Shown here: positions 5,805 through 54,719 of the stretch, piece by piece | Position numbering within the stretch: position 1 is the first letter of the stretch | Layout: each line of letters begins with the position of its first letter | Origin: an uncultured Nitrospiraceae bacterium | GTDB lineage: Bacteria > Nitrospirota > Thermodesulfovibrionia > Thermodesulfovibrionales > SM23-35 | DNA length: 64,000 bases | NCBI GenBank assembly: GCA_937138415.1 | Contig: CAKZPA010000041.1 | Coordinates: forward strand, 1,072 to 65,071 | Direction: 5' to 3' | Position numbers and translations under genes: made by a program | Notes under the pieces: generated by a model | What the model saw: only the letters and a program-made list of their open reading frames with translations | Databases searched by the model: none | Told to the model about the DNA's origin: nothing

Positions 5805-5881
5805 TGGCGCGCCCAGGAGGATTTGAACCCCCGACCTGCGGATTCGTAGTCCGACGCTCTATCCAGCTGAGCTATGGGCGC
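5805..5881 (-). tRNA. tRNA-Arg (anticodon ACG)
   Basis: Reverse complement is GCGCCCATAGCTCAGCTGGATAGAGCGTCGGACTACGAATCCGCAGGTCGGGGGTTCAAATCCTCCTGGGCGCGCCA. It forms a cloverleaf with anticodon loop CT-ACG-AA and an encoded CCA. Confidence 0.9.
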
Positions 5882-6708: not shown

Positions 6709-6801
6709 TGGCGGAGAGGCAGGGATTCGAACCCTGGGTGAGGTTTTACCCCCACAACCGCTTAGCAGGCGGCTGCCTTCGACCGACTCGGCCACCTCTC
6801 C
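6709..6801 (-). tRNA. tRNA-Ser (anticodon GCU), long variable arm
   Basis: Reverse complement is GGAGAGGTGGCCGAGTCGGTCGAAGGCAGCCGCCTGCTAAGCGGTTGTGGGGGTAAAACCTCACCCAGGGTTCGAATCCCTGCCTCTCCGCCA. Confidence 0.9.
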
Positions 6802-49490: not shown

Positions 49491-50897
49491 CTACGCGGAA
49501 GAACGAACGACGATCTGGTCGCGACCTTTTCGCTTCGCGGCGTACAGGGCGTTATCCGCCAGACTGATGAGATCGTCGAAATGTTTTATCTTCTCGTCGG
49601 GGAACCCCGATATCCCGAAACTGGCGGTAATCGTGTGGCCTTTTCCCAGGTGCGGGAATTGCGTCGACGTGATCATCTTCCGGAGACGTCGGGCCTCGAC
49701 GATGGCTCCGTCGAGGGGAGTCTGCGGGAGAAGCAGGATGAACTCTTCACCGCCGTAGCGGGCGAAGAGGTCCGATTTCCTCGTATGCCGCTTCACGAGC
49801 TGCGCGAAATCCCTGAGAACGCAGTCGCCGACCCTATGCCCGTAGGTATCGTTGACCTTCTTGAAGTAATCGATGTCCATCATGACGCAGCTCAGGGGCA
49901 GGTGGTATCGCTCGGCACGATTGAATTCCTCTTCGAGCCGAGAGTAGAAGTACCGTATGTTGTAGACCCCCGTCAGATAGTCCGTGACCGAAAGCTTCTC
50001 GAGGTTCCCCCTCTCCCGGTCGAGCTTCTGAAAAAGGAACGCGTTGTAGAGGGCGTTCGACGCTGCATTCGCGAGCGCCACGCAAAAGTCCACCTCGCGT
50101 TTCGAAAAGGAGTGGTGGACGCGCGACATCCGCAGGACCATCGTCCCGATGACTTCCTCCCTGAAGAATATCGGGATCACGAGAATCGACTTGATGCCGA
50201 GGGGCGCAATGAGTTCTCTCACGCCTTTCATGATCGGATTCTTCTGGGCGTCCTGGATGATCACGGGCTTCTTGCTCGAGAGCGCCGCGGAGATCTCCGG
50301 GTACTTCCTGAGGTCGAGACGCAAATTCGTGAGGGTAGGATCCTCGAACGTCGCGAGGACCCGCGCAAACCTTTTCTCTTCGAGATTGACGCTGATCATG
50401 GAGCATCTCGTGGCGTGGAGCACCTCCGAAATCTTTTTCACGACGAGGTAGAGCACCTCTTTCGGGTTGAGCGTCGAAGAAGCGAGGTAGGTGAGTTCCA
50501 GGAGCGTCTCGAGGTCCTTCTTGTCCCGATAGAGGTTCTCGATGACGCTGCTCCTGTAAATGAGGGTTTTGAGTTTGTGATCGAGTTCTTCCTCGTAAAA
50601 CGGCATCACGAGATAGCAGTCGACGTTGGACTTGATCGCGGCGTGAATCCCTTTCGTCTGATCTCCGGAGATGATGGCGATCACGGGACAGGAGATACGC
50701 AATCCCTGCAGCTGGGTCAGGATATCGGGGCTGTTGACCATGAAGACCGACGGTTTTTTCTGCTCGATCTCCTCTCCGAGCGAGCGCTTGCCCTCACCGA
50801 AAAAATGGACCGTGTAGTACCGCCGGCGACGGAAGAACGACTTGAGGAACCGGATGACCGATTCGTCCTTTTCATATACGAGAACCGTCTTTTCCAC
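49491..50897 (-). CDS. Diguanylate cyclase: degenerate receiver - GAF - GGDEF
   Basis: GGEEF active site with RKSD (RxxD I-site) five residues upstream. A GAF block is present. The receiver-like N-terminus probably starts at GTG 50897 (MEKTVLVYEKDE); the track start at 50978 is an extension. Confidence 0.85.
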   Translation of the reverse strand: MEKTVLVYEKDESVIRFLKSFFRRRRYYTVHFFGEGKRSLGEEIEQKKPSVFMVNSPDILTQLQGLRISCPVIAIISGDQTKGIHAAIKSNVDCYLVMPFYEEELDHKLKTLIYRSSVIENLYRDKKDLETLLELTYLASSTLNPKEVLYLVVKKISEVLHATRCSMISVNLEEKRFARVLATFEDPTLTNLRLDLRKYPEISAALSSKKPVIIQDAQKNPIMKGVRELIAPLGIKSILVIPIFFREEVIGTMVLRMSRVHHSFSKREVDFCVALANAASNALYNAFLFQKLDRERGNLEKLSVTDYLTGVYNIRYFYSRLEEEFNRAERYHLPLSCVMMDIDYFKKVNDTYGHRVGDCVLRDFAQLVKRHTRKSDLFARYGGEEFILLLPQTPLDGAIVEARRLRKMITSTQFPHLGKGHTITASFGISGFPDEKIKHFDDLISLADNALYAAKRKGRDQIVVRSSA

Positions 50898-51133
50898 GGA
50901 AAGAATATAACAAAAAAATGAAAAAAAACCAAATCCTTTTTTTTTCGGCAACGTCACGAAACTACAATGACAAGACATCGTGGCATCGCTCCTCGCCGGG
51001 CTTCGGCCCGCGGGAAATGCTGCCCTGAGGCATCCGCATGATAAGACTATGGGAAGGATACGTTTTCTCTAACACGCGCGGGAAGCACGAACGACGGGAC
51101 AGAGGAGAAATCCGCAGCCGGAAACGACGGGTA

Positions 51134-52846
51134 CTATTTCCGAAGTTTCTTGCGGAGCGACCGTAGGTCGAGCGTATTCAGAACATCGCCCTTTTCGACC
51201 CATCCCCGTCTCGCGATCGCAACGCCGTATTCCATGTACTCGAATTGGTGCGTGACGTGCGTATCGGTACTGATGACGAGCCTCACGCCCATCTCCCTGG
51301 CCGCCCGGGCGTGCGCGTCGTTCAGATCGAGTCTGAGCGGGTAGGCATTTATCTCGATCGCCGTTCCCGTCTCCGCAGCTACGTTGAGCAGTTCCTGCAT
51401 ATCCACCTCGTACGGGTCCCGCTCCCCGATGAGCCTCCCTGTCGGGTGCGCGATGATCGACACGTGGGGATTCCTCATCGCTGCGACGAGCCTCCTCGTC
51501 ATCTGCTCCTTCGACTGCTTGAAACCGGAATGGATCGATGCGATCACGATATCCATCTCCCCGAGAATCCTATCGTCGAAATCCATGCTCCCGTCGCCGC
51601 GTATGTCAACCTCGACTCCGGCAAGGAGCTGGAACCCCTTCAATTTCTTGTTCAGGGCTGCAATCTCCCTCTTCTCCTCGAGGAGTTTCTCCTCGCTGAG
51701 GCCGCGCGCTATCCCGAGCCCTTTCGAATGGTCCGTGATGGCGAGATAGCGGTACCCCCTTTTCCTCGCCTCCGCGACGAGTTCTTCGAGATCGTGGCTC
51801 CCGTCGCTCCGCTTCGTGTGGACGTGAAGATCCCCCTTAATGTCGGAAAGTTCGATGAGGCGGGGTAACGTTCCCGAGAGGGCTGCCTCAACTTCCCCCG
51901 TATCTTCCCGCAGTTCCGGCGGTATGAACGGCAGGCCGAGCAGTCTGTAGACATCCTCTTCTTTTTCGCCGCCCAGTTTCTTCTCGTCCTTCTCCCGAAA
52001 GATGCCGTATTCGTTGATCTTGAGCCCGGCCTTCACCGCCATTTCCCTGAGGCGGATGTTGTGCGACTTGCTGCCGGTGAAGTACGCGAGTGCGGCACCG
52101 AAACTCTCTTCCTCGACGACACGGAGGTCAACCTGGATCCCCGTGTGGAGAATGACGCTCGATTTCGTCGGCCCCTGCATGAGAATGTCGCGAACCTGCG
52201 GGAGGCGCGCGAACGCGTGCATCACCCCTTTCGGATCGCGAGACGTCGCGAGAATGTCGATATCTTTCACCGTTTCCTTCCAACGCCGCAGGCTCCCGGC
52301 GATCTCGATCCGATTCACCGGCGCCTTTGCCTGCATCTGATCCACGATCTCCTTCGCGACGGGCAGCACTTTTCCGAGCGGTTGCCTCTCCTTACCCCGC
52401 TTGAGCATCTCGAGCCCCTTGATGATGTTCTCCTCCGTCTTATCCTTGATGCCGGGCAGCGTGACGAGCTTGTGCTCCTTCGCCATGCGTTCGAGGTCCC
52501 GAAGGTCCGTGACGTGCAACTGCTCGAAGAGGAGCTTTGCGGTCTTTGGACCGAGGCCCGGCACCGAGAGCAGGAGGCTGAGCCCTTCGGGCACCTCCTT
52601 TCTGAGGTCTTCATACGCCTGGATTTTGCCGCTCCCGCAAAACTCGAGAATTTTCGCCGCAAGATCGCGCCCGATGCCCGGGATCTTCAGCAGATCATCT
52701 TCGGAAGCGGCAGCGACGTCCGTGGAGAGATTCTCGATATTGAGGGCAGCCCGCCGATATGCACGGATTCTGAACGGATTCTCCCCCTTAATTTCAAGAA
52801 GATCCGCCATATCAGAAAAAATTCGCGCAATCTCCTGGTTCTTCAT
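51134..52846 (-). CDS. polX: DNA polymerase X with a C-terminal PHP phosphoesterase domain
   Basis: The start at ATG 52846 gives MKNQEIARIFSDMADLLEIKGENPFRIRAYRRAA. Also GSLRRWKETVKDIDIL and PHP motif DLHVHTKRSDG. Confidence 0.9.
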   Translation of the reverse strand: MKNQEIARIFSDMADLLEIKGENPFRIRAYRRAALNIENLSTDVAAASEDDLLKIPGIGRDLAAKILEFCGSGKIQAYEDLRKEVPEGLSLLLSVPGLGPKTAKLLFEQLHVTDLRDLERMAKEHKLVTLPGIKDKTEENIIKGLEMLKRGKERQPLGKVLPVAKEIVDQMQAKAPVNRIEIAGSLRRWKETVKDIDILATSRDPKGVMHAFARLPQVRDILMQGPTKSSVILHTGIQVDLRVVEEESFGAALAYFTGSKSHNIRLREMAVKAGLKINEYGIFREKDEKKLGGEKEEDVYRLLGLPFIPPELREDTGEVEAALSGTLPRLIELSDIKGDLHVHTKRSDGSHDLEELVAEARKRGYRYLAITDHSKGLGIARGLSEEKLLEEKREIAALNKKLKGFQLLAGVEVDIRGDGSMDFDDRILGEMDIVIASIHSGFKQSKEQMTRRLVAAMRNPHVSIIAHPTGRLIGERDPYEVDMQELLNVAAETGTAIEINAYPLRLDLNDAHARAAREMGVRLVISTDTHVTHQFEYMEYGVAIARRGWVEKGDVLNTLDLRSLRKKLRK

Positions 52847-52852
52847 ACAAAA

Positions 52853-52861
52853 AGTATAGCA
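52853..52861 (-). promoter_or_regulatory. Extended -10 element 6 nt upstream of the polX ATG
   Basis: Minus strand reads TGcTATACT, then 6 nt, then ATG 52846. No SD. Confidence 0.35.
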
Positions 52862-53044
52862 AAAAAGCGCTCTTGCGGCGATAAGTAGCTCGCGTTCGCC
52901 CAGATCGGAGAAAGGGAAGGAAAGACGGCGAGAGGGAACAAGCGATGGAGGGATTCGGGGAAAAACCGGCGGGACCGACAAATACGTCCGTTTCCCCATT
53001 CATCGGGCTCTTGAAATCGATACCGAAATTGATAAAATAGAATT

Positions 53045-53325
53045 AACTGAAAGACAGACATGCGAGACCCAGAACGGCTTAAACCTGAGGATCGAGCAAA
53101 TATTATGGGACGCGGGAGTGGGATGCGGTGAGCAGGCCTTCAGAAGCGAGAAGGAAGCCTAAAGCATCTCCCGAAGCATCCAAGCTGTAAAAGAGCTCAC
53201 GGTTTCCGTTTCTGGGATCGCATTCAAAGTATTCGGGAGCCCCGTAAGGGCAAGGAAGAGACGGTGAGCTGCGATCGCCGTCCGAAGAAGTGCAAAGACC
53301 CTTGCGGGGCTCTTTTTAGTTTTTC
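53045..53325 (+). ncRNA. Candidate orphan small RNA, class unknown
   Basis: Promoter: TTGAAA (53011-53016), 16 nt, TGaTAAAAT (53030-53038). No plus-strand ORF of at least 60 aa, and no SD-led ORF seen. Internal helices: 53068-53077 with 53206-53216, and 53216-53222 with 53270-53276. A terminator-like hairpin at 53295-53312 is followed by CUUUUUAGUUUUU. Confidence 0.35.
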
Positions 53326-53426
53326 GACGGAGCGTTCGCCGCTATCCCGAAACGGGCAGGTCAAAAGTGCGGATGCCGCATTGGACGTGTCAGATCATCC
53401 GCGAGGAATCGCGTCTCCTTTTTTGC

Positions 53427-54719
53427 TTAATGTTTGAATGCCCTCTGCCCCGTGAACACCATCGTGACTTTCGGGTTCGCTTCGTTACAGGCGATGATCG
53501 ACTCGAAATCCCTCTCGGATCCGCCCGGATGGACGATCGCCGTGACGCCTTCTCTGATCCCGACGTCGACGCCGTCACGGAAGGGGAAAAAAGCGTCGGA
53601 CACCATGACCGATCCGATGAGCCCGCCTCTCTCCGCCTTCGTTTCGTCGTCTATCTCGGTCAGATCGCGTCGGCTCCGCCTGCCGTTGCGGACCTCGAGC
53701 TCGAATTCCTTGTAGCCGATGCCGTATTTCCTGTAGCAGAGCGCATCAGCGTATTTCGTGTACGCCTTGAAAACCGCAATCTCGGCAACGCCGACCCTGT
53801 CCTGTTCCCCGGTCCCGATGCCGACGGTTACGCCGTCCTTCACGTACAGGACAGAATTCGAGGTGACGCCCTGTTCGATGAACCACCCGAAGAGCATATC
53901 CTCGTACTCGCGGTCGGTCGGCTGCCTTTCGATACTATATTCTTTCCCCTGATACGTTGCCCTCGCGGGCAAAAAATCTTCTTTTGACTGTATCCTGTTG
54001 AGCGGCGACTGCTGCACGATGATGCCACCGTCCATGAGAGACTTGAAATCCACGAATCGCAGAGTTCGATATCGCGCTAACTGGTCTATCCTGCTTATCC
54101 GCACGATCCTCAGGTTCTTCCTCTTCGCGAGCACCGAGACCGTCCCCTCTTCGAAATCGGGGGCGGCAACGACTTCGAGATAGTTCCTGCTTACCATCTC
54201 CGCCGTCTCCTTGTCCATAGGTCTGTTGAGGACGAGGCACCCGCCGAAGGCCGCGATTCTGTCGGCCATATTCGCTTTCTCGTAAGCCTCCGCGAGCGTC
54301 GTTCCATACGCCGCCCCGCACGGATTGTTGTGTTTCAGGATGATTGCAGCGGGTCTCTCCATAAGATATCTCATGATGTTGAGCCCGTTGTCGAGATCCG
54401 TGAGGTTGATCTTGCCCGGATGCTTGCCCGCCTGGATCATGTCTTCTTCCGATATGCTGCTCACCAGTCCGTTTCCGGGCTCGATGAACTGGCAGGCGCC
54501 GAGAACGAGATTCCCGTTCACGAGTTCGTAGAGTGCCGCTTCCTGCTCGGGATTCTCCCCGTACCGAAGCCCTTTTTCGATCAGCTCCCCCGTCTTTTCG
54601 TCCGGTATCTTCCACGTCCTCTTGCGGTAGAAGAGCGTCTGATCGCCGAATTTCACGATCACCTCGCCGGGGAAATGATCCTCCATGATCGTGCGGTACA
54701 TCTTTTTTATATCCCGCAT
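53427..54719 (-). CDS. purH: AICAR transformylase-domain protein (PurH lacking the MGS-like IMP cyclohydrolase domain)
   Basis: LRYGENPEQ and the AICARFT-type core extend to the C-terminal HPGGSERD. The 430-aa product has no N-terminal MGS domain. Confidence 0.8.
   Translation of the reverse strand: MRDIKKMYRTIMEDHFPGEVIVKFGDQTLFYRKRTWKIPDEKTGELIEKGLRYGENPEQEAALYELVNGNLVLGACQFIEPGNGLVSSISEEDMIQAGKHPGKINLTDLDNGLNIMRYLMERPAAIILKHNNPCGAAYGTTLAEAYEKANMADRIAAFGGCLVLNRPMDKETAEMVSRNYLEVVAAPDFEEGTVSVLAKRKNLRIVRISRIDQLARYRTLRFVDFKSLMDGGIIVQQSPLNRIQSKEDFLPARATYQGKEYSIERQPTDREYEDMLFGWFIEQGVTSNSVLYVKDGVTVGIGTGEQDRVGVAEIAVFKAYTKYADALCYRKYGIGYKEFELEVRNGRRSRRDLTEIDDETKAERGGLIGSVMVSDAFFPFRDGVDVGIREGVTAIVHPGGSERDFESIIACNEANPKVTMVFTGQRAFKH

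Follow-up and report, generated by a model that had tools for sequence, protein, structure and literature searches.

The locus analyzed here lies in a 64,000-nt stretch of DNA (the window) from an uncultured bacterium of the Thermodesulfovibrionales (Nitrospirota), in the gap between two genes encoded on the minus strand. One of them, polX, has a longest ORF of 621 aa (51134-52999); the public gene call starts at 52849 and yields 570 aa, with Pfam domains beginning at residue 52. With the polX start at 52849, the gap measures 577 nt (52850-53426) and the promoter described below falls outside the gene. The other is a purH-like gene (PF01808; 53427-54719, stop codon at 53427), whose product comprises only 430 aa, matches the AICARFT/IMPCHase profile from position 76 and contains no other domain, and whose relatives are called "IMP cyclohydrolase" in the NCBI naming. 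On the plus strand of this gap, a preceding inspection of the DNA letters (the sequence-only reading) had proposed a candidate orphan structured small RNA that runs from a promoter to a terminator and converges on purH. The positions it assigned to the features of this unit were borne out to within 1 nt. The transcript, 281 nt long, is predicted to fold with -103.7 kcal/mol (z = -3.79), and none of 200 dinucleotide shuffles folded as well.

An Rfam scan, which the sequence-only reading had proposed as a check, returned nothing at the gathering thresholds (entire window, no family called at the locus), but a relaxed local scan of 52850-53480 identified the 6S family (RF00013) as the sole meaningful family match (53108-53182, 30.2 bits, E 2.7e-4, model positions 59-132 of 187). 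This score is below the curated RF00013 gathering score of 46.4 bits, and the local alignment covers the apical half only. 6S was also the top Rfam match on all three syntenic orthologues (L002, 48.1 bits; L003, 36.4 bits; L005, 34.5 bits; loci outside the window are denoted by L and a number), which are 75-85% identical to the window RNA. The L002 match extends over the full model (1-187) and exceeds the gathering score. The statement that the RNA could not be matched to 6S is therefore wrong.

The orthologues were sought by synteny, via purH, in 80 related genomes, the purH relatives being named Thermodesulfovibrionales or Nitrospirota, which is the basis for the taxonomic assignment of the contig (ENA ERZ27245459 k141_102343), and only L002, L003 and L005 turned out to have the RNA downstream of purH. 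Because the syntenic orthologues were so few, homologues were fetched among metagenome contigs by means of a DNA pattern based on the apical stem, GTGAGCANGCCN{12,16}GGAAGCCTRAAG. The fetched contigs contained 81 matches to R1, a covariance model of the window copy and the three orthologues, and the scores of these matches form a gradient from 201 to 22 bits. In an Rfam scan of 20 loci, further homologues reached the 6S gathering score (L116, 54.7 bits; L161, 51.1 bits; L150, 47.9 bits; L105, 46.4 bits), with calls that span model positions 1-187 and coincide in their coordinates with the R1 matches. The orthologous group thus matches the family model at its curated threshold and the single window copy does not, so that the membership of the latter in 6S rests on the chain to the threshold-passing orthologues.

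The original proposal, a novel and so far unclassified structured sRNA outside all known families, can appeal to the window itself, where the 6S match is partial and none of the families attains its gathering score. However, the orthologues and the further homologues pass the curated 6S threshold across the full model, and the fold, the bubble size, the length and the promoter (see below) are all consistent with 6S, which makes a new family extremely unlikely. We identify the plus-strand unit with high confidence as ssrS, the gene for 6S RNA, an RNA of near-universal occurrence that binds RNA polymerase and damps its activity. What stands of the original proposal is a stand-alone plus-strand gene for a non-coding, highly structured RNA, equipped with a promoter and a terminator of its own; the label of orphan does not apply, as the RNA belongs to 6S. 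The window RNA is a divergent member of the family, sub-threshold for Rfam. A literature search for 6S RNA in Nitrospirae or Thermodesulfovibrio found nothing specific.

The core of the transcript (53060-53223, 164 nt) corresponds in the consensus fold to the 6S rod, composed of a closing stem, a central bubble and an apical stem (Table 1). Among 79 distinct homologues, 91.4% of the cells form standard pairs, compared to 38-48% with the partners slid by 1-3 columns (the alignment was fitted to the R1 model, which somewhat inflates the pairing percentages), and compensatory changes are found at 40 of the 48 pairs; neither the observed percentage paired nor the covariation score of the core was reached by any of 500 shuffles. 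In helices 1-5, which make up the closing stem, every pair exhibits compensatory changes, and this part is free of the bias that affects the apical-stem columns under the fetch pattern, which are invariant as a consequence of how the homologues were fetched. The bubble persists in 64 full-length homologues, where its strands have medians of 14 and 11 nt and are A-rich on both sides; these RNAs have a median length of 165 nt. The unit thus possesses the rod of ~160-200 nt with closing stem, bubble and apical stem-loop that is typical of 6S.

Table 1. Features of the ssrS unit in the window and copies of the 3' domain at related loci
Feature	Position	Strand	Basis or remark
-35 hexamer TTGAAA, ssrS promoter	53011..53016	+	10/12 match; TTGAAA/TTGACA-type -35 conserved there in homologues
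Extended -10 TGaTAAAAT	53030..53038	+	16-nt spacer from -35
5' leader (inferred)	53045..53059	+	promoter geometry; start placed ~7 nt after -10
Closing stem, 5' strand, including AUGCGA and CCCAGAACGG	53060..53093	+	consensus fold; covariation
Central bubble, 5' strand GAGCAAAUAUUAUG, 14 nt	53094..53107	+	unpaired in consensus; Rfam 6S alignment puts the bubble here
Apical (terminal) stem-loop, conserved GGUGAGCAGGCC...GGAAGCCUAAAG	53108..53181	+	RF00013 match; covariation in helices 6-10
Central bubble, 3' strand AAGCUGUAAAA, 11 nt	53182..53192	+	consensus fold; A-rich, median 11 nt in homologues
Closing stem, 3' strand, including CCGUUUCUGGG and UCGCAU	53193..53223	+	consensus fold; covariation
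Linker, 6S core to 3' hairpin, 11 nt	53224..53234	+	4-14 nt between R1 and R2 matches in 16/16 loci
Long 3' hairpin, 80 nt; outer stem GGGAGCCCCGUAAGGG / CCCUUGCGGGGCUCUU; inner hairpin GACGGUG...CGCCGUC	53235..53314	+	-42.3 kcal/mol
U-rich tail UUUUUAGUUUUU	53313..53324	+	read from sequence; inferred intrinsic termination site
3' domain copy	L114:1687-1799	-	
3' domain copy	L005:5151-5260	-	
3' domain copy	L116:2378-2490	+	
3' domain copy	L159:1599-1713	-	
3' domain copy	L160:1108-1219	-	
3' domain copy	L121:1761-1869	+	
3' domain copy	L150:1474-1591	+	
3' domain copy	L093:2139-2248	-	

Several of the long-range pairings noticed in the sequence-only reading are accounted for by this fold. The one between CCCAGAACGG (53068-53077) and CCGUUUCUGGG (53206-53216) is real and conserved and belongs to the 6S closing stem, and the one between CGGGAG..GAUGC (53113-53126) and GCAUCUCCCG (53164-53173), equally real and conserved, is part of the apical stem. 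A further helix proposed there, GAUCGCA (53216-53222) with UGCGAUC (53270-53276), was rejected: it competes with the closing-stem helix AUGCGA (53060-53065)/UCGCAU (53218-53223), which exhibits compensatory changes at 6/6 pairs, and UGCGAUC is specific to the window and absent from the orthologues. The motifs GGAUCG, CGGGAG, GGUGAGC and CCGAAG had been reported to form an ordered series that hints at an internal duplication. Each of the four does occur twice and in the same order, as would suit an origin of the RNA by internal tandem duplication, but the alignment of the two segments is no better than that of dinucleotide shuffles (Smith-Waterman score of 16 vs 15.2 +/- 2.4, with 404 of 1000 shuffles scoring at least as high), and the second set of motifs falls in the linker and the 3' hairpin and is not conserved in the orthologues. 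We give this origin practically no credence; both the apparent duplication and the GAUCGCA/UGCGAUC helix are due to chance.

The near-consensus promoter described for the unit (TTGAAA, 16 nt, TGaTAAAAT) is indeed present at 53011-53038. A sigma-70 match of 10/12 is by itself at the level of chance (1 found vs 0.7 expected in 1.3 kb), and its significance comes from its conservation among the homologues: among 30 distinct homologues, 23 have a match of at least 9/12 within the 65 nt that precede the RNA, compared to 3% of random 65-nt windows from the same loci, and in 22 main-group homologues among these 23 the -10 element ends 10-21 nt before the RNA. Transcription would start at ~53045, and the orthologues have a purine-rich leader of a length similar to that of the putative leader in the window. 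In the 6S-1 RNA of B. subtilis, an 11-nt 5' leader is removed by RNase J1 (PMC10578484).

The absence of a credible ORF, already remarked on in the sequence-only reading, was corroborated, as the unit contains only ORFs of 20-57 codons, none of them conserved. Among these, the 23-codon ORF at 53060-53131 was discarded, having 14 codons in L002 and 20 in L005 and showing conservation without third-position bias, and so was the 57-codon ORF at 53264-53437, of which neither the length nor the codon pattern is conserved; a 33-codon ORF in the 3' domain of L114 was rejected as well, being interrupted in L005 and L159.

Analysis of the genomic neighborhood revealed five loci at which the unit converges on purH (the window, L002, L003, L122 and L135); elsewhere it adjoins genes for an IS200-type transposase (L114), FKBP and GroES (L116), triosephosphate isomerase (L093), a DUF4143 protein (L121), a DEAD-box helicase (L150) and FBP aldolase (L160). 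Since the neighbors differ between loci, the unit is an autonomous gene, and it combines, as expected for an independent 6S gene, its own housekeeping-sigma promoter, the lack of a conserved ORF and variable surroundings. A gene for an rpoD-like, full-length primary-type sigma-70 factor (regions 1.1-4) adjoins 6S at two loci (L152:6064-7494(-) and L082:5527-6951(-)); 6S RNA has sigma-70 as its protein partner, and this adjacency may be a coincidence. In 76 of the 80 genomes with purH, 72-84% identical, no such RNA was found within 3 kb of purH. The synteny breaks fast, as seen in L004 and L006-L081, where purH is up to 84% identical (e.g. in L004) and 6S is absent within 3 kb.

The convergent arrangement had led to the suggestion that read-through of the terminator would be antisense to purH. 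A cis-antisense regulator of purH acting through leaky or regulated termination could draw on the recurrence of this arrangement at the five loci listed above and on the interruption of the U-tract (UUUUUAGUUUUU). Against it, the RNA ends at ~53324, some 100 nt short of the purH stop codon; the plus strand has a second terminator-like hairpin (53400-53413, followed by a T-run) in this interval; the RNA is missing near purH in the 76 genomes just mentioned and occurs beside unrelated genes elsewhere; and there is no conserved antiterminator, the sole candidate being the window-specific GAUCGCA/UGCGAUC helix. Neither an overlap with the target nor a conserved association, as expected of a cis-antisense RNA, was thus found for purH, and we consider this role highly improbable. 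The adjacency to purH reflects common descent within a small clade rather than function. A riboswitch or leader would be followed by a co-oriented gene, and here purH is on the opposite strand and the neighbors vary; the Rfam scans gave no match to riboswitch families at the locus. The second terminator-like site of the plus strand (53400-53423) consists of CGCGAGGAATCGCG, with the hairpin at 53400-53413, followed by TCTCCTTTTT, and lies directly at the purH stop codon, where it would keep read-through from ssrS out of purH. In L003 the spacing between the 3' domain and purH is ~37 nt, hence the second site is not conserved.

The 3' end of the unit turned out to be more elaborate than had been supposed. 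The U-rich end after a hairpin (CUUUUUAGUUUUU at 53312-53324) is present as described, and the terminator of the sequence-only reading does have a G+C-rich stem with a U-tract, but this stem is only the base of the 80-nt hairpin. Similarly, the pairing of GAGCCCCG (53237-53244) with CGGGGCUC (53305-53312) is real and conserved, but it had been taken for an alternative structure and forms instead the actual base of the 3' hairpin. As in intrinsic terminators, the G+C-rich stem GAGCCCCG/CGGGGCUC stands immediately before the U-tract UUUUUAGUUUUU at the end of the unit, both stem and tail being conserved, and in most related loci the outer stem is likewise followed by a U-rich tail. Unlike in the compact stem-loops of intrinsic terminators, with loops of a few nt, the hairpin spans 80 nt and its stem encloses ~50 nt of further structure in the window; in addition, conservation of sequence and structure across loci with different neighbors is unusual for a terminator. 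A simple terminator scan (loop 3-8) missed the 3' hairpin, whose loop or interior is too large for it.

A model of this 3' domain built from eight canonical copies (R2) matches the window at 53235-53323 with 28.7 bits (E about 3e-5 to 9e-5), compared to 82-110 bits for the canonical copies. The domain was detected in 16 distinct loci (18 with two duplicate contigs), always 4-14 nt after 6S and on the same strand, and never apart from 6S in the 522 kb searched. Over 16 sequences, 89.9% of the cells form pairs, compared to 36-52% with slid partners, and compensatory changes occur at 15 of the 27 pairs. A reading of the domain on the reverse strand was dismissed, as G-U-dominated pairs and scores of 110 bits forward vs 22 bits reverse place the domain on the 6S strand. 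MAFFT combined with RNAalifold on all 15 3' domains recovered the outer stem only, and the canonical subset revealed the inner helices. Common to the canonical copies are the outer stem, the inner helix UGGUCAUCCUG / CAGGUUGUCCA, in which two U-U mismatches are conserved, a small GGCA/UGCC hairpin, a loop rich in purines and the U-rich tail. No Rfam family matched the domain when 20 loci were scanned at the gathering threshold; relaxing the cutoff to E <= 1 for L002, L003 and L005 and to E <= 10 for the canonical L114 copy gave no match either. The domain measures 87-118 nt in the relatives, and the deeper ones among them show sequence conservation in the interior, including the loop AAUGAAGCAGA; the window copy retains the outer stem and the tail, and its interior is replaced. 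The window segment 53235-53323 is a degenerate copy of a lineage-specific structured 3' domain that would act as a terminator stem. The more distant 6S homologues are without the domain and have a U-run directly after the closing stem. In L138 (572-577), L152, L082 and L114, a U-run (UUAUUUUA or UUGUUUUA) is found already after the 6S closing stem, ahead of the 3' domain, which at these loci may consequently arise only by read-through.

It is conceivable, if on balance unlikely, that the 3' domain constitutes a functional RNA module beyond a terminator, for instance a second sRNA that is co-transcribed with 6S, or an element that tunes 6S through protein binding, stability or processing. This would add to the identification as 6S and is compatible with it. 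Its exclusive position directly after 6S, the covariation of its structure, the conserved interior in deeper relatives, a length of 87-118 nt that far exceeds that of ordinary terminators, the U-runs that precede it at the four loci above and the lack of a matching Rfam family all point in this direction. On the other hand, the domain always ends in a U-rich tail, like a terminator, and has no promoter of its own, with a linker of only 4-14 nt; its interior has been replaced or lost in several lineages, including that of the window, its third helix is missing in L138 and L082, and the more distant 6S genes dispense with it altogether and terminate at the closing stem.

Among the characterized systems, the unit resembles 6S/SsrS (RF00013; E. 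coli SsrS and B. subtilis 6S-1) in the length of ~165-170 nt, in the closing stem, bubble and apical stem, in the conserved GGG/CCC bubble flanks and the conserved apical GGUGnGCAnGCC...GGAAGCCUAAA, which agree with the Rfam consensus, and in being a stand-alone gene with its own sigma-70 promoter. It differs from them in the sub-threshold score of the window copy and in that the closing stem in the window lacks its own U-run, termination being left to a separate long hairpin; unlike in Proteobacteria, the gene is not linked to ygfA. In the B. subtilis 6S-2 RNA (BsrB), a separate terminator hairpin stays in the mature RNA (PMC10578484). The window resembles this arrangement in that a distinct terminator hairpin follows the 6S core; the hairpin is, however, 80 nt long in the window and 87-118 nt in its relatives, is specific to this Nitrospirota lineage and exhibits conserved inner helices and loops in the relatives of the window copy.

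The promoter, the 6S fold with its central bubble and the hairpin with its U-tail are all conserved. E. coli SsrS and both B. subtilis 6S-1 and 6S-2 are open-promoter mimics that sequester the housekeeping-sigma holoenzyme and are freed from it by the synthesis of product RNA (pRNA) (PMC8414754). In the window, the sigma-70-type promoter (53011-53038) would drive a plus-strand transcript of ~280 nt, the segment 53060-53223 folds into the 6S rod, and the long hairpin and the U-tract would end the transcript before the convergent purH. By analogy with the family, the rod with its bubble would mimic an open promoter and occupy the active-site cleft of the housekeeping-sigma RNA polymerase holoenzyme, thereby damping transcription as growth slows. 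Upon a nutrient upshift, the polymerase would copy the 5' bubble strand and the adjacent part of the closing stem (~53080-53100) into a short pRNA, which would refold 6S and free the enzyme. The 5' strand of the bubble (53094..53107) is accordingly the putative template region for pRNA synthesis, and alignment to the Rfam consensus suggests a start near 53093-53100, the counterpart of the E. coli start. In verified pRNAs a GG is reported to be conserved at positions 4/5 or 5/6 (PMC8414754); no such GG is evident for the suggested start, so that the exact site is uncertain. The 3' hairpin would serve in intrinsic termination and 3'-end protection, and it may either stay on the mature RNA, as in B. 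subtilis 6S-2, or be trimmed at the 11-nt linker.

This is an ordinary 6S gene, and its newness is limited to that of a sub-threshold copy in an uncultured lineage. The result is mainly a correction of annotation, by which an uncultured Nitrospirota lineage is assigned its housekeeping 6S RNA in place of a conspicuous "orphan" sRNA, and R1 together with its alignment would allow sub-threshold 6S genes to be annotated in related metagenome-assembled genomes. Only the lineage-specific 3' domain is of wider interest: should its role exceed termination, a very well studied regulatory RNA would turn out to have a new accessory module.

Elsewhere in the window, the minus strand contains a c-di-GMP-I-GGC riboswitch aptamer (RF03167; 21577-21663, 59.9 bits, gathering score 59) and two tRNA genes (5808-5881 and 6712-6801), the second of which has a long variable arm; a gene for a GAF-GGDEF diguanylate cyclase is located at 49491-50978.
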